Below, piece by piece: positions 8,536 to 49,250 of a stretch of 64,000 nucleotides of DNA. The translations under genes and the position numbers were made by a program. Under the pieces are notes generated by a model, which saw nothing but the letters and a program-made list of their open reading frames with translations, was not told the origin of the DNA and searched no databases. Source of the DNA: an uncultured Thermoplasmata archaeon (GTDB taxonomy: Archaea > Thermoplasmatota > Thermoplasmata > Lutacidiplasmatales > UBA184); contig CAVZDD010000005.1 in assembly GCA_963773945.1 (NCBI GenBank), forward strand, positions 908,163 through 972,162, in the 5' to 3' direction. Positions within the stretch are counted from its first letter, which is position 1; each line of letters begins with the position of its first letter.

Positions 8536-9567
8536 ATGTCGGGAGAGTTCCCATCCTCCCCGCGCGCGCCCGGGCGAATCAATCGGCCAAACCCACGGGG
8601 CTTAGTCGTCCTCCTGGGCACATCGGCCGTCGTTGCCTTGATCGTGGTCGGAATTTGTCTAGCATCCACGGGACTGACGACCGGGCGAAGTGAAGCTTCC
8701 GTCCTCTCCCTCCGTTCCTCCTCCCTTCCCCCCGCGGCGGCCCCTTTCTCTGTGGTGAATCTCACCGCAAACAACACCACCGTCGACGTCTCGATGGCGT
8801 TCAACGTAAGCGTGGACGTCGTGAACTTGACGGGTGGTGCCCTGAACGCCTCGAACTTCACATTCGTTTGGGCGGGACTGCCGGTTTTCGTACCGGGGAC
8901 CCCCGGCTCCGGGTGCTACGGTCTGAACCCGGACAACAATTCATCGGTGCTCAACTGCACCGCGGCGTCATCCGGCGCCCTCACCGTGTCGGTCACCGCG
9001 ACTAACTATACGAGCAGTCAAAGCAACGTTTCGACGTCGTTGTCCATCCAGGTCAACGTGCTCCCGACGGAGTCCGCCTTTACGGTGAGCACTTCGGGGA
9101 TCGCCGCCACGGATCATGTATCGGTGGCCGTGAACGCCAGTATCTCGTTCAGCGTCACCGCCTCGGGAGGTACGGCTCCGCTGTCGTATTCGTACTCGGG
9201 CCTTCCGCTCGGTTGCTCGAGCACCGCCGCTTCGTTCTCTTGCATGCCGAATCGAGCGGGGATTTACAACGTGACCGCCACGGCCACGGACGGGAACGGT
9301 TACAGCACGGGCGAGATGAACGTCACGGTAACCGTGACTGCCCCGAAGACAACGACCACCTCGGCGGGAATCGGAACAACGGGCTGGGGAATTGTCATCG
9401 GCATCCTCGTGGTCGGCGCCCTGGTGACGGTGGCACTTCTCGTACAAGCGAGGCGAGAAGAACGTCGCGGTCGCATGGGCATGGAGGAAGCCACCCAGCA
9501 GTCTTCGAGCGAATCCGGCGGGTCCCCGCCCATGGGCGGCTCACCGCCCTCAGGTCCTCCAAGCTGA
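8536..9567 (+). CDS. Secreted/surface protein: N-terminal signal anchor, many N-glycosylation sequons, C-terminal TM anchor
   Basis: N-terminal LVVLLGTSAVVALIVVGICLA; more than 15 NxS/T sequons (NLTANNTTVDVS, NVSVDVVNLTGG...); C-terminal GWGIVIGILVVGALVTVALLV followed by a basic tail. Confidence 0.55.
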   Translation: MSGEFPSSPRAPGRINRPNPRGLVVLLGTSAVVALIVVGICLASTGLTTGRSEASVLSLRSSSLPPAAAPFSVVNLTANNTTVDVSMAFNVSVDVVNLTGGALNASNFTFVWAGLPVFVPGTPGSGCYGLNPDNNSSVLNCTAASSGALTVSVTATNYTSSQSNVSTSLSIQVNVLPTESAFTVSTSGIAATDHVSVAVNASISFSVTASGGTAPLSYSYSGLPLGCSSTAASFSCMPNRAGIYNVTATATDGNGYSTGEMNVTVTVTAPKTTTTSAGIGTTGWGIVIGILVVGALVTVALLVQARREERRGRMGMEEATQQSSSESGGSPPMGGSPPSGPPS

Positions 9568-9633
9568 GCGCTCCCGTCCCGCTGGCGACAAAGCCGCGAC
9601 AAGGGCTAAGGGGCTGAACGAGACGTGCGGGGT

Positions 9634-9708
9634 GGGCGTGTGGCCTAGTCTGGATAGGGCATCGGGTTCCTAACCCGAGGGTCGGGGGTTCAAATCCCCC
9701 CACGCCCG
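9634..9708 (+). tRNA. tRNA-Arg (anticodon CCT)
   Basis: Hand-folded cloverleaf: acceptor GGGCGTG/CACGCCC (7 bp), D-stem GCCT/GGGC, anticodon stem TCGGG/CCCGA with loop TTCCTAA, T-arm GGGGG-TTCAAAT-CCCCC, discriminator G; no encoded CCA. Confidence 0.85.
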
Positions 9709-9856
9709 ATTGGATTCGAACCCCCGGGCGGTTTGACTTCATCCACACACTTTCGTCTGTTTTGTGCGGGGTGTCTGCTGCATGCAGGCGTTCAAGCGTT
9801 GGGTCGCCCGAACGGGTCTGCCCCCTCCGGCAAGGGGTGGTTATATTTCCCTGAGG
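9684..9856. repeat. Copy 1 of an imperfect ~180-bp direct repeat (tRNA-Arg 3' end plus downstream sequence)
   Basis: Roughly 70-75% identical to 13606..13790, e.g. ggattcgaacccccgggcggtttgacttc vs cgattcgagctcccaggcggtctgactctc, and ttcaagcgttgggtcgcccgaacgggtctgcc vs ttcaagttggtgaaacccgaacaggtctgcac. Confidence 0.5.
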
Positions 9857-9980: not shown

Positions 9981-12575
9981 ATGAGCGTTCGAGTAGTTCT
10001 GTTCCCCGCCCTGTTGGCAGCTCTGGTCGTTGCCCTCCTTCTGGTCAGCGGAGCAGTGAACGTCGCAGAGCCGGGGACCCCCCCGTCGGGGCCTTCCTCG
10101 ATCTCGTCCCTTGCTTCCACCCCCTCTGGGAAGGTGGTAGTCGGTGCCTTCTCGTCGGCCGTTCCCATCTCGCCGGAATTCTGGGGCGTCAACGTGGTAG
10201 CGAACCGACCATTCACGAACACCGATGCCGCCGACATCATGGCCACTCCCGCGCAGTACGTCCGGTTTCCCGGGGGAATTCTCGGGGAGGAGCTCAACTA
10301 CACCTCCGGGGCGATTACCTTCACGAATGGGAATCAAAGCCACGCCGTAACTTCCGTGAAGGCCTTCGTCGCCTCGTGCGAAGTGATCGACTGCAAGGCG
10401 ATCATGCAGCTCCCTACGGAGATCGATTCCCCGTCGACGGCCGCGTACTATGCTAGCTACGTGGTCCACAATCTGTCCTACCAGCCTGCCTACTGGGATC
10501 TCGGCGACGCGCCCGCCGGCTGGACCCATTACGGCGTCCCGTGGTCTGAGTGGGGCACCGAGGGTGGGGGGAACACGACCCCCGCCCCCTTTGCCAACGA
10601 GGTCCACGCGTACATTCAAGCAATCCTGCTGGTCGACCCGACCGCCAAGTTCGTCGCCCTGGGTGCGGGACTAGCCCAGCCGGACTACTCGATGCCGTGG
10701 GTGGAGGAGCTGGCCAAGGTGGATGGGCATGAACTCTCCGGCATCTCGGTGCATTCCTACGTCCTGAAGGGTCCCCCTAACCCCACGGATGCCGAACTGT
10801 TCGCGAACCTTTCAGGGCCGTACTCGCTGCCCGACCAGATCTCAGCCGATCGCTCGTTCATCCAAACCGCGTGCCCGAACTGCACAAACCTCCAAGTGTT
10901 CGTCACTGAGATCAACGCGGCCGAGGATGGATGGTTCGAGACGCTCATCGGGACGTTCGCGGGCACGTTGTACCTTGCGGCCGAGACGGTCCAGGGACTC
11001 GCGCTTAACGCGACCAACCTGGACTGGTTTTGCTATGATTGCAACTACTCGGGTGCCTGGTCGGAGGCACCACAAAAGTGGCAGACGCAGTACTTCCTGT
11101 TCAGCGACATCATGACCCATCTCTACGCGGAGACCCTTCCCACGATCGTGACCGGTCCTTCGACACTCTACGGAATTGCAACCTACAACGGTTCCGGACT
11201 CGCTCTTTTGCTCGTGAACGTGAACACGACCTCGGCCGTGAGCGTCAACGTCGAGCAGTCGGGATTCAATATGGACCAGCCCGGCATCACGGAGTACTCG
11301 TGGGTAAATGGCTCCGAGCCGCCGACGAACTCCACGGTCACCCTCAATGGGACGGTGACGCTTTCGCCCATGTCCCTGATGCTGCTGACGACCGGGCTCT
11401 CGTCTGTCCCCCCGTACGAAGTGACGTTCGCAACAAACCCCTCGACATGTGGGACGATCACGTTCAACGGGACGGGTTACACGAACGGCCAGTTGGTTCA
11501 GGTCACGGCCGGTACGTATCCGGTCTCAGCAACGGCCTGCACGGGCTACACGCTCGAGAGCCTGGTCGGGAGCGGGTCGGTGACGGTGAGCTCGGGGACC
11601 GCGACGGTGAGCGGGGCCGGGGAGATCACGGCGACGTTCGTGCCGAATCCCCCGCCGACGTACACGGTGTCGTTCACGGAGACGGGCCTCCCGTCGGCCG
11701 CCCCATGGTCGGCGACGCTCGGAGGGATTCAACACGCCTCAACGACGAACACAATCACATTCACAGAGCCGAACGGGACCTATGCCTACACGATCACCGA
11801 CATCTCGGGCTGGCATCAAACGTCGCTTCCCTATACCGGAACAGTCACCGTTTCGGGAGTGGCCGTCACGGAGCCGACGTTTGTGTTCACCCAGGTCACC
11901 TACACGGTGGCGATCAGCGAGTCGACGTTGCCGTCGGGCCTGGGCTGGTCGATCGCGCTGAACGGGACTACGGAGTCGTTGACGACGAACGGCGGGACGG
12001 GCACGCTGACCTGGACGGGGTTGGCGAACGGGACGTACAGCTACAGCATCACGGACATTTCGGGCTGGCACCAGACCACTCTCCCCGACAGCGGCACGTT
12101 AACGGTGAACGGCGGGACGAACAGCATCAGCGGGTCGGGGATTGGCTACTCGAAGACGCTCGTCTACACGCAGGTCACCTACACGGTGACGTTCACGGAG
12201 ACGGGACTCCCGTCCGGTGCCGAGTGGTGGGTGAACCTCACCAACGAACAGACGTACAGTTCCGTGTCGACGACGATCACATTCAGTGAGCCAAACGGGA
12301 CGTACGACTACACGGTGGCGACGGAGGACAAGCCGTATGCGCCGACACCGGCGAGTAGTTCGTTCGGAGTGAGTGGGGCGTCGGTCAGGGAGTCGGTAAC
12401 GTTCAGCCTGATCACCTACACGGTGACGTTCACGACGAGCCCGTCGATGTGTGGAACGATCACGTTCAACGGGACACCGTACATGGATGGCCAGTCGGTG
12501 CTGGTGACGGCCGGCACGTATCCGGTGCTCTGCGACGGCCTGCACGGGCTACACGCTCGAGAGCCTGGTCGGTAG
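9981..12575 (+). CDS. Large secreted repeat protein, N-terminal portion: signal peptide, ~450-aa globular domain, then tandem beta-sandwich repeats. Truncated by a frameshift.
   Basis: ATG at 9981 preceded by aagGGAGG. Signal MSVRVVLFPALLAALVVALLLVSGA. Three ~80-aa repeats of type YTVTFTETGLPSG..W...L.G.......TITF.EPNGTYSYTV, and ~77-aa repeats of type YTVTFTTSPSTCGTITFNGT.Y.DGQSVLVTAGTYPVSA.ACT.YTLESLVGSGSVTVSSGTATVSGAG.ITATF. The ORF ends in the out-of-frame peptide LCDGLHGLHAREPGR*. Confidence 0.6.
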   Translation: MSVRVVLFPALLAALVVALLLVSGAVNVAEPGTPPSGPSSISSLASTPSGKVVVGAFSSAVPISPEFWGVNVVANRPFTNTDAADIMATPAQYVRFPGGILGEELNYTSGAITFTNGNQSHAVTSVKAFVASCEVIDCKAIMQLPTEIDSPSTAAYYASYVVHNLSYQPAYWDLGDAPAGWTHYGVPWSEWGTEGGGNTTPAPFANEVHAYIQAILLVDPTAKFVALGAGLAQPDYSMPWVEELAKVDGHELSGISVHSYVLKGPPNPTDAELFANLSGPYSLPDQISADRSFIQTACPNCTNLQVFVTEINAAEDGWFETLIGTFAGTLYLAAETVQGLALNATNLDWFCYDCNYSGAWSEAPQKWQTQYFLFSDIMTHLYAETLPTIVTGPSTLYGIATYNGSGLALLLVNVNTTSAVSVNVEQSGFNMDQPGITEYSWVNGSEPPTNSTVTLNGTVTLSPMSLMLLTTGLSSVPPYEVTFATNPSTCGTITFNGTGYTNGQLVQVTAGTYPVSATACTGYTLESLVGSGSVTVSSGTATVSGAGEITATFVPNPPPTYTVSFTETGLPSAAPWSATLGGIQHASTTNTITFTEPNGTYAYTITDISGWHQTSLPYTGTVTVSGVAVTEPTFVFTQVTYTVAISESTLPSGLGWSIALNGTTESLTTNGGTGTLTWTGLANGTYSYSITDISGWHQTTLPDSGTLTVNGGTNSISGSGIGYSKTLVYTQVTYTVTFTETGLPSGAEWWVNLTNEQTYSSVSTTITFSEPNGTYDYTVATEDKPYAPTPASSSFGVSGASVRESVTFSLITYTVTFTTSPSMCGTITFNGTPYMDGQSVLVTAGTYPVLCDGLHGLHAREPGR

Positions 12576-13135
12576 CGGGTCGGTGACATTCAGCTCGGGG
12601 ACCGCGACGGTGAGCGGGGCCGGGGGGATCACGGCGACGTTCACGGCGATTCCGTATACGGTGACGTTCACAACGAGCCCATCGACTTGTGGAACGATCA
12701 CGTTCAACGGGACGGCGTACATGGATGGCCAGTCGGTGCTGGTGACGGCCGGTACGTATCCGGTCTCAGCAAAGGCCTGCACGGACTACACGCTCGAGAG
12801 CCTGGTCGGGAGCGGGTCGGTGACGGTGAGCTCGGGAACAGCGACGGTGAACGGGGCCGGGGGGATCACGGCGACGTTCAAGGCGATTACTGTGCCGACG
12901 CATAAAGTCACGTTCACGACGAGCCCGTCGACGTGTGGAACGATCACGTTCAACGGGACGTCGTACACGGACGGTCAGTCGGTGCTGGTGACGACCGGTA
13001 CGTATCTGGTGTCTGCGACGGCCTGCACGGACTACGCGCTCGAGAGCTTGGTCGGCAGCGGGTCGGTGACGGTGAGCTCGGGGACCGCGACGGTGAGCGG
13101 GGCTGGGAAGATCACGGTGGCGTTCACGACCACTT
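12418..13135 (+). repeat. Three near-identical tandem ~243-bp units (period = one 77-aa protein repeat, plus linker in some units); a fourth diverged unit lies at ~11416..11650
   Basis: Units starting at about 12418, 12655 and 12903 are about 90% identical at DNA level (e.g. acgatcacgttcaacgggac recurs). Confidence 0.7.
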
Positions 13136-13326
13136 CCAGTTCCGCGGCCCCTGGATTTCTGGGCTTTTCCGGGAACCTGGGCTACTATCTCCTGGGGGGG
13201 ATTGTGGCGGCTGTACTGGTGGCGATTGTGAGTTTTGTGGCCGCCTACCGAACGAAGGGCAAGCCCTACGAGGGAGCTTCGAGGTCGGGCCCTGGAGGCA
13301 CTCCGTCTCCTTCAGGGCGACGGTAG
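12583..13326 (+). CDS. C-terminal continuation of the same repeat protein (two and a half more 77-aa repeats plus TM anchor), separated from 9981..12575 by a 1-nt insertion
   Basis: Starts inside a repeat (MTFSSGTATVSGAGGITATF...). C-terminal GYYLLGGIVAAVLVAIVSFVAAY followed by a basic tail. Confidence 0.5.
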   Translation: MTFSSGTATVSGAGGITATFTAIPYTVTFTTSPSTCGTITFNGTAYMDGQSVLVTAGTYPVSAKACTDYTLESLVGSGSVTVSSGTATVNGAGGITATFKAITVPTHKVTFTTSPSTCGTITFNGTSYTDGQSVLVTTGTYLVSATACTDYALESLVGSGSVTVSSGTATVSGAGKITVAFTTTSSSAAPGFLGFSGNLGYYLLGGIVAAVLVAIVSFVAAYRTKGKPYEGASRSGPGGTPSPSGRR

Positions 13327-13790: not shown

Positions 13791-14045
13791 TTGGAGGGAA
13801 CATTCGACACCAAGACGATGTCGATACGGGCGAAGATCTACCTCTGCACAAGCGACTCGAGCAAGCCCTAAAGCGAACCATCAGGTCCGTTTAGTGGCAA
13901 AGGAGGTTGCGAGTCGCACGCTTCCCGCACTCTTCACACGGGACGCCTGGCGCTGCGCGGCCCTGATCCTGCTTTCTGACCGGGTCGCACCGCGGTGAGG
14001 CCTGGGCGCAAGATTTACGTCCAAGACCTCTTACCGGGGCTCGGA

Positions 14046-14534
14046 ATGTTCGCAGGAGACGACCGGCCTCTTCGTGGCACTGCCTTGTTTGGATTGGCGG
14101 CGATCGCTGTCGTGCTCGGGATTGGACTAGTCGCCTTACCCCTCGCATCGGCTGAGTCGGCCATTATGACAACGTCGGTTTACGCGTTGCAAGTTTCCGT
14201 GAATCCATCGTCGCACACGTACACTGTCGGCCAATCGCCCGGTGTCACCGCGACGGAGAAGAACACGGGTTCATCCACCTTCAAGGCGACGGCCTGCATC
14301 GTGTCGGTCGAGGTGCCGGGATCGAGGACGTTCAAGTCCGGTGCTTGTCCCGGATTCAAGGCGTTCTCGGTGAAAGCGGGAGCCAGCGCGAGTCAGAAGT
14401 ATAGTGTGTATCCGTACAAGGTCACGAGCACGACGCCCAAGGGGACCTATCACCTGAAGGGATACTTCAAAGGGACCGTCGGCGGGAAGGCGTACGTCAG
14501 CAAGACTGTGTCATTCACGCTAACGGTCGCGTAG
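14046..14534 (+). CDS. Small secreted protein (signal peptide plus ~130-aa S/T/K-rich domain)
   Basis: MFAGDDRPLRGTALFGLAAIAVVLGIGLVALPLASA, then a beta-rich sequence; internal ATG of ORF 13995..14534. Confidence 0.45.
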   Translation: MFAGDDRPLRGTALFGLAAIAVVLGIGLVALPLASAESAIMTTSVYALQVSVNPSSHTYTVGQSPGVTATEKNTGSSTFKATACIVSVEVPGSRTFKSGACPGFKAFSVKAGASASQKYSVYPYKVTSTTPKGTYHLKGYFKGTVGGKAYVSKTVSFTLTVA

Positions 14535-35059: not shown

Positions 35060-35581
35060 CTACCGCTCGAGCTCCTCGATCAGGTGCTGCACCGCGGGCA
35101 GGACGAGCTTTTCGAGCGCGGTACGCACGGCACGTTCCGAGCCCGGCAACGCGAAGACCGGCTTGTCCCGAACGAGAAACAGGGAGGCTCGGCTCAGCAT
35201 CGCGAGCGGTCCGACCTCCTGGTAGCTCAGCGTGCGGTAGAGGTCGCCGAACCCCTCCAGCCGGCGTCCGCCCATCGCTTCGAGCGCCGCAACCGTGAGG
35301 TCGCGGGAGCTCACCCCCGTACCGCCGACGGTGATCGTGGCCTCGACGGGAATCTCCTTGAGGTACGGGTCGAGCTTGTCGCGCACGTCGGCGACACTGT
35401 TGGCGACCAGGTCATAGTGCAGGACCGTGTGGCCGGCCTGACGGAGGAGGTCGCGCGCCAGGTGGCCCGAGGGGTCATCGTCCGGGGTATGAGTGTCCGA
35501 GACGCTCAACACGACGAAGCCGACGGAACGGTCGCCGCCCAGGTGGTGTCGCCCCCCCGCCGGTTTGGTTTCTGTCATCGT
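35060..35581 (-). CDS. moaB: Molybdenum cofactor biosynthesis protein MoaB/MogA
   Basis: GGTGVSSRD (MogA/MoaB GGTG motif), FVVLSVSDT; internal ATG (MTETKPAGG...) of ORF 35060..35692. Confidence 0.75.
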   Translation of the reverse strand, partial: TMTETKPAGGRHHLGGDRSVGFVVLSVSDTHTPDDDPSGHLARDLLRQAGHTVLHYDLVANSVADVRDKLDPYLKEIPVEATITVGGTGVSSRDLTVAALEAMGGRRLEGFGDLYRTLSYQEVGPLAMLSRASLFLVRDKPVFALPGSERAVRTALEKLVLPAVQHLIEELER

Positions 35582-36031
35582 GTTCGTCCCGAGATTGGCC
35601 GTTTCTCCTTCGCCACGACCCGGATGGGTCCGAGTCGGGTCCCCGGATATCCTCCGCCGCGAGTTTTCTCCAGGTACTTGACCATGTCCCATACAGTGAG
35701 AAGGGCCACCGTGGCCCCGACGAGCGCCTCCATCTCAACTCCTGTCCGCCAGAGGGCCTCCGCCTCCGCCTCCACTCGAACTCCCGTTCGGGTCGACCGG
35801 ACCTCGACCCGGCTCGCCGGTGAGCGGGATAGAGTGGCAGTGGGGGATCAGCTCCGGAGTGTGACGCATGGCCATCATGCCGGCGAGTTCGCCCGCGAGG
35901 AGAGGGTCCCCCTTCTCCACCCGCCCGGCGCGGATGGCCTTGCGGCTTTTTTCGGTGAGAAGGAGCGCGCCCTCCACCACCGCCCGGCGGTAGACGACGG
36001 GTTTCTGATGGACGCGGCGTTGGGCGGTCAC
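35575..36031 (-). CDS. moaC: Cyclic pyranopterin monophosphate synthase MoaC, interrupted by a 1-nt frameshift near 35808..35812
   Basis: N-terminal part has ...ELIPHCHSIPLTG (MoaC LIPLCHP motif) in ORF 35735..36031. The C-terminal part VEVRSTRTGVRVEAEAEALWRTGVEMEALVGATVALLTVWDMVKY (MoaC TGVEMEAL...TIYDM motif) is in another frame (ORF 35575..35775). Confidence 0.6.
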
Positions 36032-36035
36032 GGAG

Positions 36036-37031
36036 TTACCGGCTCCGGCCCTTCAGCGTAGCGATGCGAGCGAGTACCGACTCGAGCTGGATCCGGTCGG
36101 AGGCGCCCTGTGCGAGCCGGAAATCCAGGTCGGCGAGGTGCTGGATGAGCAGGATCTTCTCCCCGGCGGGAATAGGCGGTCCCGGTTCCCCCACGACGTA
36201 GCTGTGCAAGGACCGGAGGATATCCTCCCCGCTGGCCCCCCGCTCCACGAACAGGCGGAACAGCTGTTCCCGCGCGGCGAGAAAATCCCCCTCCAAGGCC
36301 GTTCCGAAGATCGCCTCTACCTCGTCGCGCATCGGAGCCGTGACGACGTCGCGGATGGCCGAGATATCGACTCGGTCCCGGAACGTGGCGGCCAGCTGCA
36401 ACAAGTTGATCGCCCGACGGAGGTCCCCGTCACTCGCCTCGATGATCGCTTGGTAGGCATCGGGCGAGACATCCCGTTTCTCCGCCGTGGCGATGCGCTT
36501 CAGCTGGTCCTGGATCTGGTCGGGCGAATAGATACGGAATCGGAAGACGGCGCAGCGGGACTGAATCGGCTCGATGATCCGGGACGAGTAGTTGCAGGAC
36601 AGTATGAAGCGGCACGCGGCCGAGTACCGTTCCATAAGCCGGCGCAGCGAAGCTTGGGCCTCCGCCGTGAGATTATCGGCCTCGTCAAGGAAGAGGATCT
36701 TGAACCCCCCGCCGATCGGCGCGCTGCGGGCATAGCTCTTGATCGTCGTGCGGACCGTGTCGATCCCGCGCTCGTCCGACGCATTCAGTTCCAGGAAGTT
36801 CTGGCGCCAATCCTCGCCAAACAGGTCACGCGCGAGCGCGATCGCGGCCGTGGTCTTCCCCGTGCCCGGGGGTCCAGCGAGCAGAAGATGCGGCATCGAG
36901 CGTTTCTGCGCGTAGGCGCGGAGCACGGGCACAATGCTCTCCTGGCCGACCATGTCGGCGAGGCTCTTGGGACGATACTTCTCGACCCAGACTGTGTCCC
37001 GTTCTTGCGCCGGCATGCAACCCGTGACCAC
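36036..37031 (-). CDS. rfcS: Replication factor C small subunit
   Basis: WVEKYRPKSL, Walker A GPPGTGKTT, SRC-like box, DEAD-like FLDEADNL, arginine finger region; 331 aa. Confidence 0.9.
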   Translation of the reverse strand: MVTGCMPAQERDTVWVEKYRPKSLADMVGQESIVPVLRAYAQKRSMPHLLLAGPPGTGKTTAAIALARDLFGEDWRQNFLELNASDERGIDTVRTTIKSYARSAPIGGGFKILFLDEADNLTAEAQASLRRLMERYSAACRFILSCNYSSRIIEPIQSRCAVFRFRIYSPDQIQDQLKRIATAEKRDVSPDAYQAIIEASDGDLRRAINLLQLAATFRDRVDISAIRDVVTAPMRDEVEAIFGTALEGDFLAAREQLFRLFVERGASGEDILRSLHSYVVGEPGPPIPAGEKILLIQHLADLDFRLAQGASDRIQLESVLARIATLKGRSR

Positions 37032-41516: not shown

Positions 41517-42544
41517 TTGTCACCGTGTGGCTCTCCGGGGAGAACCATCGACTTGCGCGGGCCGAACTCACCGGAGCGGCTCGGCGGCTCGGAGGACGCG
41601 AGGTCGAACCGTCCGTCGTGGTGGGGGTTCCCGGCCGGGCTACGGTCGAGCTCCCCGACCAGGCGGCGGCGATCCAACTCGCGAGCCGCCTCGCGCTCGC
41701 GCACCGTTGCGCCAAAGCCTGGCCCGAGATGGATCTCGAGGGTTTAGAGTCCGGCTTGAACGACGCCGGCGGGGCCCACAGCCCGGCGGCATTCCAATGG
41801 GTCTCGGGAAGCGCCGGAACGCGACCGCCAGAGATCCTACGACGATTGGGGGCGGCGTACCAGGCCGGGGGCGGCCGCATCTCCCTCGACCATCCCGCGA
41901 GACGGTTCTGGGTCGAACCGACTCCGGGCGATCGTATTCGTCTGTTCGAGGAGGTAGGGATCGTGGACCGCCCTTCGTTCTCCGCCCGACGCACGCCCAA
42001 GCTCCCGTTCCAGCGGCCGGTCACATTGGCCCCGAGGCTCGCCCGAGCCCTGGTGAACCTGGCCCGCGTCGGGCCCGGGGACCGAGTCGTGGACCCCTTT
42101 GTCGGCACCGGATCGCTCCTGCTCGAGGCGGCCCTGGTCGGCGCCCGGACTGTCGGGGTCGATGCGAGCGCCACGATGGTTCGCGGGGCGCTCGAGAACT
42201 TCGCTCATCTCGGGCAGACTCCGGAAATGCTTCGCCAGGCGGATGCCGCAGACGCCGCGGCGGAGTTCCCTCGAGAGGCATTCGATGCGCTAGTGACGGA
42301 CCCGCCGTATGGCCGGGCGTCGGGGACCCGGGGAGAGGATCCTGAACGGCTGTGGAGTCGGGCGCTCGTCGCCTGGTCGGAACGCGTTCGTCTAGGCGGG
42401 CGCCTCGCGATCGTGGTACCGGCGGGCAGCGAGGTTCCCCGGTTCGATGCGCGTCTCGAGCAGGTCATTCCGCAGCGAGTGCATCGAAGCTTGACACGAG
42501 AGTTCCGCGTCTACGTGCGGGAGCCCGTGAGCCTGGCCGGTTAA
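41513..42544 (+). CDS. Putative RNA (guanine-N2) methyltransferase, Trm11/TrmG10-like (UPF0020)
   Basis: VVDPFVGTGSLLLEAALVG (motif I), DALVTDPPYG (motif IV, N2-G/N6-A type), N-terminal THUMP-like region; internal ATG of ORF 41306..42544; 4-bp overlap with Mut7-C. Confidence 0.6.
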   Translation: MIVTVWLSGENHRLARAELTGAARRLGGREVEPSVVVGVPGRATVELPDQAAAIQLASRLALAHRCAKAWPEMDLEGLESGLNDAGGAHSPAAFQWVSGSAGTRPPEILRRLGAAYQAGGGRISLDHPARRFWVEPTPGDRIRLFEEVGIVDRPSFSARRTPKLPFQRPVTLAPRLARALVNLARVGPGDRVVDPFVGTGSLLLEAALVGARTVGVDASATMVRGALENFAHLGQTPEMLRQADAADAAAEFPREAFDALVTDPPYGRASGTRGEDPERLWSRALVAWSERVRLGGRLAIVVPAGSEVPRFDARLEQVIPQRVHRSLTREFRVYVREPVSLAG

Positions 42545-44109
42545 TAGACGAGGACCGAATCGGGACCCGCGACCCCGCTGCCGGCCTCGTTGCAGTACTG
42601 GGAGGCGGTGAAGCCCATCTCCAGACTCGCCGCCTGGGGATTCGTGTAGGTGATGTGAAGGATCCCGCTTTGGCCCGCCGGAAGGGCGAGGAATTCGGTG
42701 GACGGGAGGCTCCACGTGCCGACGCCCGTGAACGTCGTGAGATTCCCGTTGGGAAGGACGATGGTCCAACTCGAATTAGCTAAAAACGCGGACAGCGCCG
42801 GCCCGGAGAGTGGTCCCGCGCTTACATTGACGGTGACCTGAACGACCGCCGCCGTCAGACCGTATGCATGCTGCACCTGGTCGTGGTTCACCACGGTGGC
42901 GTTGATGCTCGCCGCGAGGCCAAACGAGGTCCCATTGATGGGCGCCGAAGAGAGATGTTCGAGGCCAAAACTGTCGGACGGCGTCGAGATAGGGACGAGC
43001 ACGAATCCCCCGATCAGGACCGCCACGACGAGCGCCCCAACGATCCGGCGTTGAACGCCCAGAGGGCTGACATCGTTGAGCGGGGGCGGATGTCGCACCC
43101 CGAGGAGAATGATCAAGGCGGCGAACAGCAGCCATCCCAGATACAGGGTCAGGAAGCCGATGAGGGCTAGGAAGATGACCGCGGCGTAACTCACGTAGCG
43201 GGCTCGATCCTTGAACAGAGCCCGGAAGACGTGGCCGCCGTCCAGTTGCCCGGCCGGGAGAAGGTTGATTGAGGTGACGAGGAGCCCGACCCAGCCGGCC
43301 AGGGCGAGTGGATGAAGACTGATGATGGCGGCGGCATTTGGGACGAAGAGGGAGAAGAAGTTCCAGACCAGGGGCAGGCCGATCAGCAGATCCCCATAGT
43401 TTACCCCCAGGATCGTGGGCCCGCAGTTGAGGGGCGATAGGACGGGGGCGTGGACGCTGAGGAATATTCCCGCGATCGTGACGGGAATCGCCACCACGAA
43501 TCCGGCCAGCGGCCCGGCGGCCCCGATGTCGAAGAGAACCTTTCGGCTGGGGATCGGCTCGCGGAGACTGATGAACGCGCCGAACGTTCCGAAGATCAGG
43601 TAGGGCGGAGGCACCGCCAGAAAGTACGGCAGCGAGGCTTCGACGTGGTGGTGCCGGGCCATCACATAGTGCGCGAGCTCATGGAGACCCAGGATCGCGA
43701 GCAGCGGCGCTGCGAAGTAGATCCCGCCCCACAGAAAGTCCGCAGCCACGAGGGTGGTGCTCCCGACGTAAGAGAGCCAGAAGAAAGATCCCGCGAACGC
43801 GGTCGATACAATCGTGGCCGCGAGAAGGGCAAGGTTGACCCAGAATCCCCAGGTGTTGCGCGGCCCCCGTCGAACGATCTCGATCGAATATTCTCCCTGA
43901 AGGTAGCGGAGCTGCGGGACATAGAACTTCGGCCAGAGGTCCTGCCGGAGGGCGTCGAATTTCTCCTCCAGGGAAGCCGGGTCGGCGTGGACGAGGAGAA
44001 CCAGCGAGACCGGCGTGATCCGGGTCTCGTAGACCGGGAAGAAGCGGGAGACCTCAGCCCGAAGCCAATCGAGTTCGGGGCCCGGCGGGGACGGCAGCGG
44101 CGCCGCCAC
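42541..44109 (-). CDS. Site-2 protease (M50 family) membrane metalloprotease with a C-terminal extracytoplasmic domain
   Basis: HExxH as LGLHELAHYVMARHH within TM helices, downstream LDGG-type motif (AGQLDGGH), multiple TM helices; 522 aa. Confidence 0.8.
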   Translation of the reverse strand: MAAPLPSPPGPELDWLRAEVSRFFPVYETRITPVSLVLLVHADPASLEEKFDALRQDLWPKFYVPQLRYLQGEYSIEIVRRGPRNTWGFWVNLALLAATIVSTAFAGSFFWLSYVGSTTLVAADFLWGGIYFAAPLLAILGLHELAHYVMARHHHVEASLPYFLAVPPPYLIFGTFGAFISLREPIPSRKVLFDIGAAGPLAGFVVAIPVTIAGIFLSVHAPVLSPLNCGPTILGVNYGDLLIGLPLVWNFFSLFVPNAAAIISLHPLALAGWVGLLVTSINLLPAGQLDGGHVFRALFKDRARYVSYAAVIFLALIGFLTLYLGWLLFAALIILLGVRHPPPLNDVSPLGVQRRIVGALVVAVLIGGFVLVPISTPSDSFGLEHLSSAPINGTSFGLAASINATVVNHDQVQHAYGLTAAVVQVTVNVSAGPLSGPALSAFLANSSWTIVLPNGNLTTFTGVGTWSLPSTEFLALPAGQSGILHITYTNPQAASLEMGFTASQYCNEAGSGVAGPDSVLVY

Positions 44110-44112
44110 GGC

Positions 44113-44439
44113 TTAGCCCGCCGCCGCGGCGGCCTTGGCCGCCTTTTGGGCCTTCTTGCCCCGTTCCTTCGCGGTGTACCCGGTCAGCGTCTCCAGGAAC
44201 CGGTTGTAGCGACGCACCGTCTCGGCGGCGACCTCGTTCGAGACTTTGGGATTCATCCGGAGCTCCACGATCAACTCTCCCTTTCCGATGCGCGTGATCA
44301 GGGAACCAATAGCCCCGTACCGGGTGGTCACGGCGTCCGCCGATCGCTCGGAGGCGCCGAATTCGGCATCGGCGGTGGCGGCGATTCGGTCGAGGGTCAA
44401 CTGGGCCCGGACCGCCGGGCGCACGCTGTAATTCCCCAC
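44113..44439 (-). CDS. Hypothetical conserved small protein (108 aa) with a Lys/Ala-rich C-terminal tail
   Basis: Coding-like composition, ends KERGKKAQKAAKAAAAAG; tightly packed between S2P and PPAT; no motif recognised. Confidence 0.4.
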   Translation of the reverse strand: MGNYSVRPAVRAQLTLDRIAATADAEFGASERSADAVTTRYGAIGSLITRIGKGELIVELRMNPKVSNEVAAETVRRYNRFLETLTGYTAKERGKKAQKAAKAAAAAG

Positions 44440-44543
44440 GGTGAGCCGTTCTATCTCTCTCCGACCTTAAGGTTGACCGGGGACTCGCTCCGTGGGTAAT
44501 CCCCCGACAGAGCGGAGGGACCGCTCCGAGGAGGGGGAACGGC

Positions 44544-44765
44544 TCAGACCGTCTCGATCTCGAAGAGAACCTGGTAGCCGCGGAGGAGACGAGTCACCTC
44601 ATCACTGAGGTCGAGCAGCTGGTCGGTCGTGGCCGGGCCGCGCCAGTCGTAGAGAAAATCGTAGTTTCCCTGGGTCGGGACGAATCCAAAGCCCACGAGC
44701 CGGTCCGCGATCTCCGACGGCTTGGCTCCCTCGCTGTGGAAGCTGACGCGGAGGTAGGTTTCCAT
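44544..44765 (-). CDS. Possible small hypothetical protein (73 aa)
   Basis: METYLRVSFHSEGAKPSEIADRLVGFGFVPTQGNYDFLYDWRG... has protein-like composition, but it is an internal start in an ORF that overlaps PPAT in another frame. Confidence 0.25.
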   Translation of the reverse strand: METYLRVSFHSEGAKPSEIADRLVGFGFVPTQGNYDFLYDWRGPATTDQLLDLSDEVTRLLRGYQVLFEIETV

Positions 44766-44791
44766 CGAGCGCACGACGGGCGGACCGTAGA

Positions 44792-45322
44792 TTAACTCTT
44801 CGTCGAAGTGGCTCGCGTACGAGCGGCCCACGTCCGGAGAAGATGCCCGTCCCGGTCGATCTCGCCGGCGCGGATGCGTCGGGAGGCGATCGGTCGACCG
44901 TCCTCCCCACGAACCTGCTGGACCACGCAGACCCGGAGCGGGGCGAGCCCCCGCCGCCGGCGTTCCGCGTTGATGGAACGAGCGGCTCGACGGGTCTCCT
45001 CCGAGAGGACCAGCAGGTCGGCGCCGGGACGGACCGAACCCCCCCACCGGTCGTTCAAGGCCACGATCGACCACCGACGTCGCCCGAACCGTAGCCGGAG
45101 GAACTTTCGAAGCGAGCGACGGCGGGTTTCGTAGGACTGCACGAGTCCGACCAGGGGCTTTCGTTCCTTCCGCACAAACTTGTCGGACGTGAGGCCGATC
45201 TTGACCTCCCTCGCGCGCTGGAACGCGGCCGCCAGTAGCGCGTGATGGCCCGAATGCAGATGGTCGAAGGTCCCGCCGAGAACGGCCACGCGGGACCGAC
45301 GCCCTGGAGTCACTCGAGCCAT
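44792..45322 (-). CDS. Archaeal phosphopantetheine adenylyltransferase (cytidylyltransferase-like, COG1019)
   Basis: VAVLGGTFDHLHSGHHALL (HxGH nucleotidyltransferase motif) and ISS-like region; 176 aa. Confidence 0.75.
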   Translation of the reverse strand: MARVTPGRRSRVAVLGGTFDHLHSGHHALLAAAFQRAREVKIGLTSDKFVRKERKPLVGLVQSYETRRRSLRKFLRLRFGRRRWSIVALNDRWGGSVRPGADLLVLSEETRRAARSINAERRRRGLAPLRVCVVQQVRGEDGRPIASRRIRAGEIDRDGHLLRTWAARTRATSTKS

Positions 45323-45822
45323 GGATGGGTGGGTCCCTGCCGTCCTCGTCGCCGGCGCCCCGGACTATCGACTTGGGGACCGCCGCGAACGCCGGCGCGC
45401 ATTCGGGTCCGCGTCGTCGGAGTCGTCTCCGGTGGGTTCGTCACCGGGCGTCCCCGAGCGGGTGAGCTCGGAGAGCGAATCCAGCTCCCGGTCAAGGTCG
45501 TCGGAAGGCGGTGGGGTTCGGGGCCGGGCCAGGAGCGTGGGGGCGCGGGCCTCCTCCGTGGCTCGGCGTTCCTCGGTCATCTGGGAGAGCTGCCGCACCA
45601 GCGTCAGCCAGACCCGACCCTGGTTGGCGATTGTGCCTTCGACCCGCTCCCGGATCTCCCGGGTCCGATCCGCTAGGTCGGTCTCGATGCGTCGTAGGTC
45701 GTGAGTAAACTCCCGCCGAAGCTGGGCGTACTTGAGGTCGGCCTCCGCCGTGCTGGCGGATCCGCGTTCGAGCTCGGAGAGCCGGGTCCAGGCCTTTCGA
45801 ACGACCGGCACCAGGCGGTCGG

Positions 45823-48549
45823 TCAGTACCACGATCTTTCGGTCGAGCTCCTCGAGTTCGGCCCGGATGGCGTCCTCGAGCCGGGTGTTGTCCCGGCTCG
45901 GTCCGCGACGTCGGTCAGGAGCGTTTCGAGGCGTTGCGTCAGCTCGGCATGTTCCCGGCCGAATCGTTCTTCGACGGCCATGGCCCGCAGGTCGATCAGG
46001 TGCTGAACGTCGGAGCGGAGACTCTCGGTGCTTCGCTGGAACTGGTCCTTGACGATGCGTTCGGTGGCGGCCACATCCGGCGCCTTGTTCAGCGAGGATT
46101 CCGTCTCCCCCTTGAGACGTGCCAGGAGCTCCAGGTACTTTTCGCGCTCCCGGTCCAGGCTCTCCCGGAGCTTCTGGTCGGAGGACCATTGAAGACGGAC
46201 CTGCAATTCGGCGACCGAGTGCATCTCGGAGTCGCGGAGTTCCTCCAGCTTGGCGTCGACCTTCCGGTCCCCGCGACCCTCGAGGACGCCGAGTTGCTCT
46301 TCGACGAGGCCGCTCGTGCGCGACTCGGCCTCCCGCAGGGCGGCGGCGACCTTCTCCTGGACCTCCCGGGCGCGGCCGTCGATCAGGAGGGACAGTCGGC
46401 GCTCGATCTCCTGGAGCTCTTTGGCTCGCCGTTGCTCGGCCTCGGTGATACGACTCTCCGCGGCGCCGCGGAGCTTCTGTTCGAGTTCCTTCCGCTGGGT
46501 CTCGTCCCGGTCCTGGGCCTCTCGCAAGTGGAGGTCGAGCTGGGCGACCAGCGCTCCTCGAAGATCCTCCTCGGAGGCCTGGGCCCGCGTCTTGACATCC
46601 GTCAGGGCCTGGGTCAACGAGTCGCGGAGCTCGGCTCGAATCTGCTCGGCCGACTGCTTGAGGGATTCCTCGCCCCGGGTCCGAAACTCCTGGATCTTCG
46701 GGTCGACGAGGTTGCGCACACCCTGGTCGAGTTCCTGGCTCACGATCGTGCGCAAGTCAGCCTGCACGCGTTCTTCGGTCTGGGTGATCCGCGTCGAAGC
46801 GTCCTGGCTCAGTCGAGCCTCCAGTTCCGCCGTACGGGCGAGCAGCCGGTCCGTGAGGGAACTCAGCGCTTGCTGTTGGAGCGCGGTCCACGTCGTGAAC
46901 CGTTGTTCCATGGAAGAACGGGCCTCCTTGAGCGCCTCGGCCTGGCGCGCCGCTTGGTCCGCCAGCGCCGGCTTGAGATGTTCCTGCACCGCCCCATCGA
47001 TACGGAGCGGGTCGATGGGCTCTGGAGGGCGAGGCGGAGGTATCGCCCGCATTCGCTGCTCGACGACGGTGTTGAAGCGTTCCGCGAGCTCGTCCTGGAA
47101 GGCCTTCGTCCACCCGGCCGGAGGAACGGGGTTGACGTTGGACAATCGCTCGTCGAGGTACCGCATCAGGTCGGCTTCGATCTGCCGACGTAGCGCTCCC
47201 TGATCGATGACGGGCCCGGGGGACGCCGGAGCGGTACCGGGTTCCGGGACTTTCTGAAGGGACGGGTCGTCCTTGACGGACATGGGGACCACCTCGACCT
47301 TGCTAGTGCGCTGGGTCGCCAGAGGACTCGTACCGCCGCGCTGGAGCCAGGGAGGAAGCTGTCCGGCCACCTGGGGGTCCGGCACCGGAACAGGGGGCGC
47401 CGGCGGAAGGTCCGAGGCCCGGATCTCCTCCGCGGGCTCCTCGCCGGCATGCGCCTGGAGGTACTCCTGAGCCCGGCGCGAGAGCTCGGGACTCAGCTCG
47501 AGCCGACGGCCCCGGGGTTTCTGCAAGAGGAGCGCGGTGCTCTCCATCGCGGTGGATAGGCGCCACATCTCCTTCCGACGGTCCTTGCCTCCTTGACGGT
47601 CCGGGTCCGCCAACCGCGCCCGGAGCGTTCGAAGCTCGACCCGGTCCACGCGCTCGGTGACCGGGGTCAGCTTCGCCGTCGACCGCTCACGCACGTACTG
47701 GACGACAAGGGGCGTGATCTCCTTGCCCTTACCGGCCGGGGACGGGATGCCGTCGGTCAGGTCGTAGAGGGTAACCGGCGCCTCTTCCCAGCTCTGCACC
47801 CGCTTCCGGTGACGTTCCCCGCCCGATTCCCCGCGCGGGACGCGCAGGACCGCGAGAGAGAGCGGCGTGGCCTCGGCGAAGTCGGCGAGGTTGGTCTTGG
47901 GCTCCGGTAGGAAATAGGGGAACGCGAGGATGGCCCCCAAGGACAACAGCGAGGCCGGGAGCGTACGAACGTACTCGAAGATCGTCTCCATCGTAGCTTC
48001 CCATTCCTCCGCCGCGATCAGGAGGACGGGCTCGGTCGAGCCCCGGAAGAACAGGAATCCCTCTCCGACCAGTGGGTAGAGCTTGAGGTCGGCGGGTGGC
48101 GGAGGCCGTTGATCGTGTCGGCCGCCGCCCATCGATTCGTACCACTTGAGCAGGGTCTCGCCGAAATTGCCGCTGGCCAGCAGGCGGCCCGTATCGAGGA
48201 CGAGCGTCTTCATGCCGAGACGCGGCCGGTCCTCCGTGGACAGGAACATGCGGCCGAGGCAGGTGTAGGACCCGCCGTACGCCGGATAGAGGAACAGGTT
48301 CCGATAGTACGACAGGGGGAGGGCAGGGTCGGGGTCCCAGTAGTCCTGGGTGTCCGCGACGTTGACGGCGAGGTTGCCGACGATGCGGATTGCGTCGAGC
48401 GTTTCCTGGTACCCCGGGAAATCGTTCGGAAGGGCGGTGTAGCCCGGACTCTCGGCTTCGTTATCGACCTGCCGGCACCAGACCACGGCGATGGGTTCGG
48501 TGGCTCCGCCAGAGGTCGCGTCGGCGGCCTTGGGGCCCGGGGTTGCCAT
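45823..48549 (-). CDS. Giant hypothetical protein: ~330-aa N-terminal alpha/beta domain, Pro-rich linker, >500-aa continuous coiled-coil; last gene of the vWA operon. Probably continues to ~45365 after a 1-nt frameshift at 45892..45896.
   Basis: Start ATG 48549..48547 overlaps the upstream stop (TAATG). Heptad-rich E/R/L/Q/A sequence from ~residue 520 to the end. The coiled-coil continues in frame +1 (DNTRLEDAIRAELEELDRKIVVLTDRLVPVV..., track ORF 45365..46189). Confidence 0.6.
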   Translation of the reverse strand: MATPGPKAADATSGGATEPIAVVWCRQVDNEAESPGYTALPNDFPGYQETLDAIRIVGNLAVNVADTQDYWDPDPALPLSYYRNLFLYPAYGGSYTCLGRMFLSTEDRPRLGMKTLVLDTGRLLASGNFGETLLKWYESMGGGRHDQRPPPPADLKLYPLVGEGFLFFRGSTEPVLLIAAEEWEATMETIFEYVRTLPASLLSLGAILAFPYFLPEPKTNLADFAEATPLSLAVLRVPRGESGGERHRKRVQSWEEAPVTLYDLTDGIPSPAGKGKEITPLVVQYVRERSTAKLTPVTERVDRVELRTLRARLADPDRQGGKDRRKEMWRLSTAMESTALLLQKPRGRRLELSPELSRRAQEYLQAHAGEEPAEEIRASDLPPAPPVPVPDPQVAGQLPPWLQRGGTSPLATQRTSKVEVVPMSVKDDPSLQKVPEPGTAPASPGPVIDQGALRRQIEADLMRYLDERLSNVNPVPPAGWTKAFQDELAERFNTVVEQRMRAIPPPRPPEPIDPLRIDGAVQEHLKPALADQAARQAEALKEARSSMEQRFTTWTALQQQALSSLTDRLLARTAELEARLSQDASTRITQTEERVQADLRTIVSQELDQGVRNLVDPKIQEFRTRGEESLKQSAEQIRAELRDSLTQALTDVKTRAQASEEDLRGALVAQLDLHLREAQDRDETQRKELEQKLRGAAESRITEAEQRRAKELQEIERRLSLLIDGRAREVQEKVAAALREAESRTSGLVEEQLGVLEGRGDRKVDAKLEELRDSEMHSVAELQVRLQWSSDQKLRESLDREREKYLELLARLKGETESSLNKAPDVAATERIVKDQFQRSTESLRSDVQHLIDLRAMAVEERFGREHAELTQRLETLLTDVADRAGTTPGSRTPSGPNSRSSTERSWY

Positions 48550-49250
48550 TACTTGTCTCCGGCCGGCTCCTTGGCGAGCACGCGCTCGCAGATCCGGGCG
48601 AGAGGTAACGGAGTGTTCACCATGACCGGGATACCGGCGCCCGAGGAACCGCCGGGCATGCCCTCCACCGGGGCCGCTTCGGCCGTGCCGGAATCGGTCC
48701 AGAGCAGCGGTCGGCCCTCCCCGGTGGAGACGGCCGAGGAGACCAGGAAGACATCGTCCTTCGTGGAGATCCCCTGCCCGTCGTGGGCAACGAGAATCGT
48801 ACCCATACCGGCCCCGTCGCGGCGGAGCAGGAACTCCTGGGAGTCGAAGGTGCTCTGATAGGCCCTGTCCTTGAGGACATGGTCGATCTCGCCATAGAAA
48901 TCTTTGAGAAGATCCGCCTTCGAGATCGCGATCACGAGCGGGATGTTCCGGGCCTTGACGTACCGGAAGACGCCCCGGGCGAGGTTGACCTGCTGCGCCT
49001 GGTCGCGGAGCGAGGGCAGCGACGGCGACAGCAGGAGGATGATTCCATCGGCTTCCACAACGAACCGGCCGAGCAGGGTCAGTCCTCGACGCCAGAGCTC
49101 TTGCCGGTCCGGTCGCCAGGTCTCGAAGTGGGGGATCACCCGACACATCTTGTCGTCGATCTGGCCGTCGGCGGAGGTGAGCCAGAGCCGGTCGTAGGTG
49201 AAGTAATCCGAAATGATCCCGCCGGCCTCGTCGATCGTGTGCATCATCAT
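48549..49250 (-). CDS. Hypothetical protein with GTPase-like G3/G4 motifs (HTIDEAGG, EADGIILLL, ISKAD); third gene of the vWA operon
   Basis: Start is a triple ATG (MMMHTIDEAGG) overlapping the P-loop gene stop (ATGA). Internal ATG of track ORF 48549..49805; the upstream part of that ORF is the out-of-frame shadow of 49247..49738. Confidence 0.5.
   Translation of the reverse strand: MMMHTIDEAGGIISDYFTYDRLWLTSADGQIDDKMCRVIPHFETWRPDRQELWRRGLTLLGRFVVEADGIILLLSPSLPSLRDQAQQVNLARGVFRYVKARNIPLVIAISKADLLKDFYGEIDHVLKDRAYQSTFDSQEFLLRRDGAGMGTILVAHDGQGISTKDDVFLVSSAVSTGEGRPLLWTDSGTAEAAPVEGMPGGSSGAGIPVMVNTPLPLARICERVLAKEPAGDK

Follow-up and report, generated by a model that had tools for sequence, protein, structure and literature searches.

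A gene for a 1114-aa surface protein, presented as two open reading frames in a deposited contig of an uncultured Thermoplasmata archaeon, most probably owes its division to a single-base insertion error in a long-read metagenome consensus. We put the probability of this reading at about 80%; in the organism itself, the gene is most likely single and whole. The artefact is favoured because the gene is uninterrupted in short-read assemblies of the same species, and because the stretch of DNA that we analysed (64,000 nucleotides, hereafter the window) contains similar one-base errors elsewhere. The window itself appears to derive from long reads, given the 0.99-Mb contig on which it lies and the pattern of its errors.

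The extra base in repeat unit B

The open reading frames at 9981..12575 and 12583..13326, both on the forward strand, are different frames of one gene (9981..13326, +). The gene is interrupted by a single extra base, C12528 (12528..12528, +; equivalently G12527), in repeat unit B, and removal of this base yields one open reading frame of 1114 aa over the full interval, close to the ~1110 aa originally predicted for the intact protein. The extra base is apparent from the register of the repeats, as the spacing between the two halves of a unit is 134 nt in unit B but 133 nt in the other three (A, C and D). In a local alignment, unit B reads GGTG[C]TCTGCGACGG and unit D reads GGTG-TCTGCGACGG, whereas units A and C read GGT-CTCAGCAA(C/A)GG. 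The original prediction had given the sequence 'gtg-tc' to units A, C and D alike; this holds for D, whereas A and C have GTC TCA. Translation of the shifted frame gives LCDGLHGLHAREPGR followed by a premature stop codon (12573..12575, +), and the correct frame is reopened by a GTG at 12583. Thus, the prediction that one extra C in unit B splits the gene, with a stop and a restart in the same repeat, was correct.

The repaired protein is equal in length to P0025, the intact protein deposited for GCA_049581325.1, and differs from it at 3 residues. The split is therefore not a chance arrangement. P0025 and the full-length homologues examined (P0002 and P0006) are encoded in a single frame, and other homologues are of similar length (850-1015 aa). 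These observations bear on whether programmed +1 ribosomal frameshifting or transcriptional slippage might yield the full-length protein from the sequence as deposited. In favour of such a mechanism, neither half has lost any of its coding potential and the downstream frame opens again at once. Counter to this, the same-species alleles and the homologues, at 40-50% identity, are single-frame, and the stretch from 12528 to 12573 contains neither a slippery nor a homopolymeric sequence. We regard recoding of this kind as extremely improbable.

The immediate context of the insertion in the window is CCGGTG[C]TCTGCG, where no base occurs more than twice in succession. The frameshift site lies in neither a homopolymer nor a simple-sequence tract, and TRF reports only a 246-nt period. 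A cluster of differences between the repeat units falls at the site (G/C, T/A and G/A within 7 nt), and the GGT-G-C-TCT of the window corresponds to the G of units B and D plus the C of units A and C at one variable position. Speaking against an artefact are the location of the insertion outside a homopolymer and the presence in unit D of the same 23-mer as in unit B, GGTGTCTGCGACGGCCTGCACGG, which has no extra base there in either long contig.

Assemblies of the same species

Short-read metagenome-assembled genome (MAG) contigs L001 (GCA_049280255.1) and L003 (GCA_049581325.1) represent the same Thermoplasmata species and are 99.84-99.9% identical to the window. Both read GGTG-TCTGCG, without C12528, and L003 encodes the intact 1114-aa protein. 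A second long contig, L002 (ENA contig_6243, ERZ25039507, 2.0 Mb), has an extra C 3 nt downstream, GGTGTCT[C]GCG. As the insertions in L002 and the window sit at different positions, they constitute two different sequences and not one inherited mutation. The site itself is covered by these two short-read and two long-read assemblies only, which were linked to the window via a homologue search and a cluster listing. Three strings distinguish the alleles at the site, GGTGTCTGCG, GGTGCTCTGCG and GGTGTCTCGCG, of which GGTGCTCTGCG is the allele with the extra C. Neither form of the unit-B site, with the additional C or lacking it, was matched in exact-pattern scans of genome and metagenome contig collections, and the species is absent from those collections; an exact-product look-up of both window open reading frames likewise gave no match. 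Runs that contain this species include SRR28062071, SRR28062068, SRR28011880 and ERR12036785.

Mis-assembly of the repeats, by collapse or by formation of a chimera, could in principle have produced a false junction. The site lies within units that are 88-91% identical, L001 breaks 77 nt past it with a tail that switches to unit-A sequence, and the window combines variants of both groups of units at the variable position described above. Against this, the number of units and the length of the array are equal in the window, L002 and L003, which differ only at single bases, and the flanks of the site in the window are unit-B-specific on both sides (GGCACGTATCC upstream, GGTAGCGGGTCGGTGACATTC downstream) and match L003. 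We consider mis-assembly highly improbable. The identical number and length of units argue for a consensus error rather than repeat collapse; thus, of the explanations offered by the original prediction, assembly artefact is the best supported, as a single-base error and not as the collapse of repeats that had been envisaged.

Indels elsewhere in these assemblies place the insertion in a broader pattern. Across the 33,619 window bases that are covered by short-read assemblies there are 3 indel loci (+C at 12528, +1 at 35815 and -3 at 39569), all of them private to the window, and the two short-read MAGs have 0 private indels despite similar SNP divergence. The insertion at 35815 splits MoaC, placing the matches to Pfam profile positions 4-68 and 74-135 in separate frames; five short-read assemblies, namely the two MAGs and three Logan runs, have an unbroken MoaC of 151 aa. 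Homology shows a further frameshift at ~45900, in the gene for a coiled-coil protein: alignments with its homologues P0149 and P0150 run through the junction. L002 shows five private indel events in 22.5 kb. Besides its extra C there are four at three loci, all at GTAC: one, at window position 9191, is absent from the window, L001 and L003 alike, and bases inserted at positions corresponding to 18869, 18871 and 19935 (two loci) split an open reading frame that is whole in the window. The presence of indels tracks assembly type, not strain.

Several other candidate breaks in the window were rejected. An apparent frameshift in a cytidylyltransferase-like gene (44547..45440, -) proved to be two complete adjacent genes, and those at 48545 and 49250 are junctions of the usual kind, in which a stop overlaps the next start. 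The open reading frames at 42544..44112 and 44116..44466 share a frame and are separate genes, for Peptidase_M50 and DUF5611. The GC3/codon-bias frame plot served only as a screen and is noisy at this G+C content.

Large surface proteins are often targets of inactivation. A genuine, recent, strain-specific frameshift would leave either a pseudogene or an 864-aa secreted product without units C and D and without the membrane anchor. The extra base is in the deposited record, in which the first window open reading frame is identical to P0028, carried by a 990,962-nt contig. The putative catalytic region has GDAP instead of GN[DE]P, which could mean relaxed constraint, but the intact alleles have GDAP as well. 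Each of the four genomes has SNPs of its own and represents a distinct strain, and a real strain-specific mutation is thus possible. Arguing in the opposite direction, every indel in the 33.6 kb compared is private to the long contig, one of them breaking a MoaC that five short-read assemblies read as intact, and short-read MAGs at similar SNP divergence have none of their own. Furthermore, a single real mutation cannot explain the different +1 insertion 3 nt away in L002. Genuine recent inactivation is therefore disfavoured, and we judge it unlikely.

Alternatively, unit B could be a hot-spot or contingency locus, at which recurrent +1 insertions toggle the product between a membrane-anchored and a released or inactive protein. 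Independent insertions of a C within 3 nt in two near-identical genomes, and none in two others, are in keeping with this, and error-prone heteroduplex repair during gene conversion is conceivable where differences between units cluster, as they do at the site. Phase-variable surface-protein genes of bacteria are similar in that a surface-exposed repeat protein has its frame broken within the repeats. They differ in that here there is no homopolymer, short tandem or other simple-sequence tract, and the state of the allele follows the assembly method. In addition, unrelated indel errors occur elsewhere in both long contigs, and no invertase or other switching machinery lies adjacent. The contingency locus of the original prediction is thus not supported, and we regard it as very improbable. 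Scarcely more credible is a real, recurrent hot-spot in unit B that is independent of simple-sequence repeats, perhaps reflecting error-prone heteroduplex repair between diverged units, that would repeatedly truncate the protein and so remove its membrane anchor, leaving it cell-bound in some strains and released or inactive in others.

An error of long-read consensus has documented parallels. Residual gene-truncating indels are known from Nanopore assemblies (PMC9262707, PMC8011154), and those described here are alike in being private to very long contigs, in their frequency of ~1 per 10-20 kb and in splitting open reading frames that are otherwise conserved. They differ in context, which is classically a long homopolymer, whereas the target and MoaC sites are non-homopolymeric; the sequencing platform in our case is itself deduced. 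Nanopore errors beside methylated sites have also been documented, mainly as substitutions or ambiguous bases (PMC11610573, PMC11610603). Those cases resemble the clustering at GTAC in L002 and at CCGGTG in the window, with a few per cent of motif copies affected, although the errors here are insertions and the link to a motif was made post hoc. Specifically, both +1 insertions of the window lie 1-2 nt from CCGGTG, and 1.3% of the compared positions are equally close, an association that was noticed only after the fact. Given that the site adjoins CCGGTG, the consensus error may have been driven by sequence context and was possibly related to DNA methylation.

The encoded protein

The protein begins with a hydrophobic, signal-peptide-like N-terminus (MSVRVVLFPALLAALVVALLLVSGAV; 9981..10058, +), as read from the translation, and the ATG at 9981 is the start in every sister-assembly gene call. 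It is followed by a domain with a predicted clan GH-A glycoside-hydrolase fold (10116..11411, +), in which AF2 and Foldseek indicate a (beta/alpha)8 barrel and then a beta-sandwich. Next come type-1 repeat unit A (aa 479-559; 11415..11657, +) and three type-2 repeats with the motif TYTVxFTETGLP (aa 560-646, 640-726 and 733-819; 11658..12437, +). Comparison of the repeats defines three further type-1 units: B, with the extra base (aa 813-894; 12417..12663, +), C (aa 892-971; 12655..12894, +) and D (aa 974-1054; 12901..13143, +). From the translation and the homologues, the C-terminus is a hydrophobic membrane anchor (LGYYLLGGIVAAVLVAIVSFVAAY; 13177..13248, +) and then a 25-residue basic tail; homologues have a similar anchor and basic tail. 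A PGF tripeptide precedes the anchor. A PGF-CTERM archaeosortase signal was considered and rejected, as NCBIfam gives no match at E <= 1 and the helix is followed by the 25-residue tail. The architecture originally predicted (signal peptide, globular domain of ~450 aa, three repeats of one kind, repeats of another kind and an anchor) is essentially retained; the repeats of the other kind, here type 1, number 4, not five.

The four type-1 copies are each of ~80 aa, three of them in tandem and unit A 1 kb upstream, before the type-2 units. TRF detects 2.9 copies at 12420..13126 with 87% matches, and the units recur every 237/246 nt, where a period of 243 bp had been proposed. Nucleotide identities are 91% for B-C, 89% for B-D, 88% for C-D and 86% for A-B, where ~90% had been suggested for units B, C and D. 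Unit A gives a borderline match to PF18998 (Flg_new_2, InlB B-repeat-like; 22.8 bits against a cut-off of 23.6, profile positions 2-71/73), and unit C gives no match to this profile.

The type-2 repeats match no family in a Pfam search. Their identity to P0022, a thermopsin-domain protein, is 35-37% over aa 760-1150 of the latter. They had been described as 'thermopsin-like', a label that fits only loosely: they match the accessory C-terminal repeats of P0022 and not its peptidase, and the Pfam Thermopsin model finds no match. Archaeal thermopsin-family proteins such as P0022 thus share these C-terminal repeats with our protein, which lacks any equivalent of their peptidase domain (PF05317; in P0022, aa 65-332).

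The AF2 model of aa 46-477 has a mean pLDDT of 62, with poor parts around aa 131-156 and 263-327 in the numbering of that segment. Searched against the PDB with Foldseek, its best match is GH79 heparanase (5bwi, E 5e-17), then GH51 arabinofuranosidases and GH44 (TM 0.55-0.59); the sequence match in the PDB, to GH51 enzyme 6d25, is weak (E 0.04). The predicted fold thus resembles those of GH79 heparanase/beta-glucuronidase, GH51 alpha-L-arabinofuranosidase and GH44 (E 1e-17 to 1e-14, TM about 0.55), and a TE(I/L) motif is conserved where the nucleophile strand of GH-A enzymes is expected. Specifically, VFVTEINAAE is conserved in all close homologues, and the stretch after it is unreliably modelled. 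The resemblance does not extend to sequence, as identity to these enzymes is 11-18% and Pfam and NCBIfam searches of the repaired protein give nothing above threshold. GH-A enzymes are expected to carry their acid/base Glu after strand 4, within a motif of the N-E-P type. This protein lacks that Glu and has YWDLGDAPAGW (GDAP) at the position; most of the family has GNDP, and the canonical GNEP occurs only in the distant homologue P0018. We suggest, on the basis of the modelled fold, that the protein may function as a surface glycosidase.

Taken as an intact product, the protein would carry an N-terminal secretion signal that directs a GH79/GH51-like domain to the cell surface. Seven beta-rich modules of ~80 aa (1 + 3 InlB-B-repeat-like, and 3 like those that follow thermopsin domains) may hold the glycosidase-fold domain away from the membrane, in which a C-terminal transmembrane helix would anchor the protein.

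Implications for reading this genome

The gene belongs to a family that is restricted to Thermoplasmata, unannotated and not covered by Pfam; its members are membrane-anchored proteins with a GH79/GH51-like fold. In itself, it is a modest addition. The broader meaning is cautionary: in a megabase-scale MAG contig, a frameshift inside a repeat of a surface protein mimics phase variation or recent pseudogenisation, and here comparison with short-read assemblies of the same species allowed it to be attributed to consensus error. The 64 kb of the window contain three or more such breaks, so counts of pseudogenes and truncated genes in this genome should not be read biologically without polishing. 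The motifs at which the errors fall, GTAC in one assembly and CCGGTG/CCGG in the other, hint at strain-specific DNA methylation, which may be recoverable from the raw signal.

The extra base in unit B

The gene (9981..13326, forward strand) is read as two ORFs, one running from an ATG at 9981 to 12575 (864 aa) and the other from a GTG at 12583 to 13326. Tandem Repeats Finder reports an array at 12420..13126 with a period of 246 nt, 2.9 copies and 87% matches. When the repeat families are placed in register, the unit halves are 134 nt apart in unit B and 133 nt apart in A, C and D, which bears out the original prediction of a single extra C in B. Read directly from the DNA, unit B has GTATCCGGTG[C]TCTGCGACGG at this site, unit D has GTATCTGGTG-TCTGCGACGG, and units A and C have GTATCCGGT-CTCAGCAA(C/A)GG. 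The inserted base is C12528 (equivalently G12527). The proposal that A, C and D all carry gtg-tc here fails for A and C, where GTC TCA stands instead of GTG TC. As had been claimed, the shifted frame, LCDGLHGLHAREPGR, reaches a stop at 12573..12575 and reading reopens at GTG 12583; without C12528 there is one ORF of 1114 aa, close to the expected ~1110 aa.

The cluster of the best homologue match comprises five sequences: P0028 (864 aa, equal to the first ORF of the window, from a contig of 990,962 nt that is evidently the source of the window), P0027 (864 aa, from a 2,006,912-nt ENA contig named contig_6243), P0026 (a downstream piece of 201 aa), P0001 (875 aa, partial, MAG GCA_049280255.1) and P0025 (1114 aa, intact, MAG GCA_049581325.1). 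Aligning the DNA of the other three genomes to the window showed the four to be 99.84-99.87% identical, with private SNPs in each. At the site, GGTG-TCT-GCG stands in the two MAG contigs (19.9 kb and 10.3 kb), GGTG[C]TCTGCG in the window and GGTGTCT[C]GCG in the 2.0-Mb contig. In other words, the extra C is found in both long contigs, at different positions, and is absent from the two shorter ones. Single-frame alleles and homologues contradict programmed frameshifting, a form of recoding that we regard as scarcely credible.

Both the intact short-read contig and the 2.0-Mb contig match the window in unit number and length, and only single bases distinguish the three. Mis-joining of the repeats is thus highly improbable, and repeat collapse, raised earlier as a form of mis-assembly, is excluded. 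Between P0025 and the repaired protein of the window there are only three residue differences, all in unit C. There, six differences in 15 nt separate window 12837..12851 from positions 8542..8556 of the GCA_049581325.1 contig (TATVN to AATAS), and elsewhere in the gene the two alleles differ by one SNP (12672). Such clustering points to gene conversion over a short tract, or to repeat units mis-assembled locally in one of the two records. The GCA_049280255.1 contig ends 77 nt past the insertion site, and its final 33 nt (12592..12624; window 12573..12605) carry unit-A-type bases at four positions, as is typical where a de Bruijn graph breaks within a repeat; the gene is therefore annotated as partial in that MAG.

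Indels and the kind of assembly

Exactly three indel loci were found in 33,619 bases compared between the window and the short-read assemblies, and all three are private to the window: the extra C at 12528, one extra base at 35815 and a missing CCG at 39569. Besides its extra C at the target site, the 2.0-Mb contig carries four single-base insertions relative to the window, spread over three loci that all lie at GTAC (contig positions 9211, 18890-18893 and 19958; window 9191, 18869-18871 and 19935; GGTAC, GGTACC and GTACC); of the 76 GTAC copies found in the 22.5 kb that the two share, 3 are affected. The insertion at window 9191 is lacking in the window and in both short-read MAGs alike, and the three bases inserted at window 18869, 18871 and 19935 disrupt an ORF of that contig that is whole in the window. 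The GTAC insertions may reflect a methylated motif that interferes with basecalling.

In the window, each of the two +1 insertions sits 1-2 nt away from CCGGTG, a proximity shared by only 1.3% of compared positions; the association was noted post hoc. This proximity is compatible with context- or methylation-dependent basecalling errors, which have been described for Nanopore data (PMC11610573, PMC11610603); gene-truncating indel errors in Nanopore assemblies are also documented (PMC9262707, PMC8011154). The size of the metagenome contigs (1-2 Mb) and a Flye-style contig name suggest that the source records derive from long reads. Over about 56 kb, eight private indel events were counted for the two long contigs. 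In the short-read MAGs, some 52 kb of comparison gave none, although private SNPs are comparably numerous there. It is thus the kind of assembly, not the strain, that indels track.

Other genes in the window are affected. The MoaC gene (35578..36052, reverse strand) is split at 35815 by the extra base (forward strand, CCCGGCT[C]GCCGGTGAG); positions 4-68 of the Pfam MoaC profile fall in one ORF and positions 74-135 in another, which overlaps it in a different frame. In both short-read MAGs, and in the Logan assemblies of three different runs, MoaC (P0029, 151 aa) is intact. Another gene, for a large coiled-coil protein (ORFs 45826..49302 and 45368..46756, reverse strand), flagged near 45900 by a codon-bias screen, also appears to be frameshifted, the window probably being one base short in GCCGGGAC. 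Across the junction, the merged translation is covered by contiguous alignments with the homologues P0149 and P0150 at 50% identity; that of P0149 has no gap (E 1e-46). The CCG at 39569 (reverse strand, GGCCGG[CCG]GTCG), which both short-read MAGs have, is missing from the window, in frame, at the 3' end of a phosphoglucomutase/phosphomannomutase gene; either an error or a genuine repeat-unit polymorphism may account for its absence. Separately, a dense cluster of 10 SNPs relative to GCA_049581325.1 occupies 36435..36636, starting where three Logan contigs end (36419), and suggests either that strains are heterogeneous or that a replication factor C-like gene contains a recombined segment.

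The extra C is present in the record as described, but most likely is not a property of the organism, and the split gene would be an artefact of assembly rather than biology (a probability of about 0.8). A genuine strain-specific mutation is unlikely, as two strains would each have to have gained a +C independently, 3 nt apart, and a private MoaC frameshift and another in a third gene would be required as well, all falling in long-contig genomes only. A hot-spot, or the phase-variable contingency locus once proposed, is very improbable: the site has no homopolymer or short tandem tract, the defining feature of phase variation.

The repaired protein and its setting

The repaired protein has no recognised family in Pfam or NCBIfam. 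Three type-2 units sit between type-1 units A (aa 479-559) and B (813-894), which is followed by C (892-971) and D (974-1054). Four type-1 units were thus counted where five had been predicted, and the repeat period is 237/246 nt rather than 243 bp. Unit A scores 22.8 bits against the divergent InlB B-repeat model PF18998 (threshold 23.6). The type-2 units, originally called thermopsin-like, match a thermopsin-domain protein in its repeat region (aa 760-1150) and not in its peptidase domain. The homologue search recovered proteins of 850-1015 aa with 42-51% identity, plus fragments of such proteins, in metagenomic assemblies whose named sources are Thermoplasmata MAGs.

An AlphaFold2 model of aa 46-477, built from 19 sequences, is of moderate confidence (pLDDT 62, pTM 0.62) and shows strand/helix alternation followed by a beta-sandwich. 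Foldseek matches in the PDB include GH79 bacterial heparanase, many GH51 arabinofuranosidases and GH44 (E 5e-17 to 1e-14, TM about 0.55), in agreement with a weak similarity in sequence to GH51 6d25 (E 0.04). VFVTEINAAE, conserved across the family, is a candidate nucleophile strand. In clan GH-A enzymes the acid/base position is expected at the motif that reads YWEIGN[DE]PSGW in this family (GNDP in most members, GNEP in the distant member P0018). The window protein differs there, with YWDLGDAPAGW (10497..10529, aa 173-183), as do the intact alleles, and the putative nucleophile motif VTEINAAE is kept. Because GDAP replaces GNDP/GNEP, catalytic competence is uncertain, and the domain may be altered or inactive.

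The protein has a hydrophobic N-terminal leader, a C-terminal helix and 22 N-x-S/T sequons; in the full-length homologues examined, the C-terminus consists of a hydrophobic anchor and a basic tail. Directly upstream on the forward strand are a 343-aa membrane-anchored surface protein with a PKD domain and many N-x-S/T sequons (8536..9567) and a tRNA-Arg(CCT) gene (9633..9709). Downstream, 13995..14534 codes for a small protein that looks secreted and matches no family. Given these two neighbouring proteins, the gene lies in a small envelope-protein cluster.

The product is best read as a glycosylated protein of the cell surface, anchored in the membrane, in which repeat modules form a stalk that bears a glycosidase-fold head; this function is predicted from the features above. 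The practical outcome is a warning on indel errors in the window's record; the gene itself most likely encodes an intact, previously unannotated and otherwise unremarkable surface protein of Thermoplasmata.
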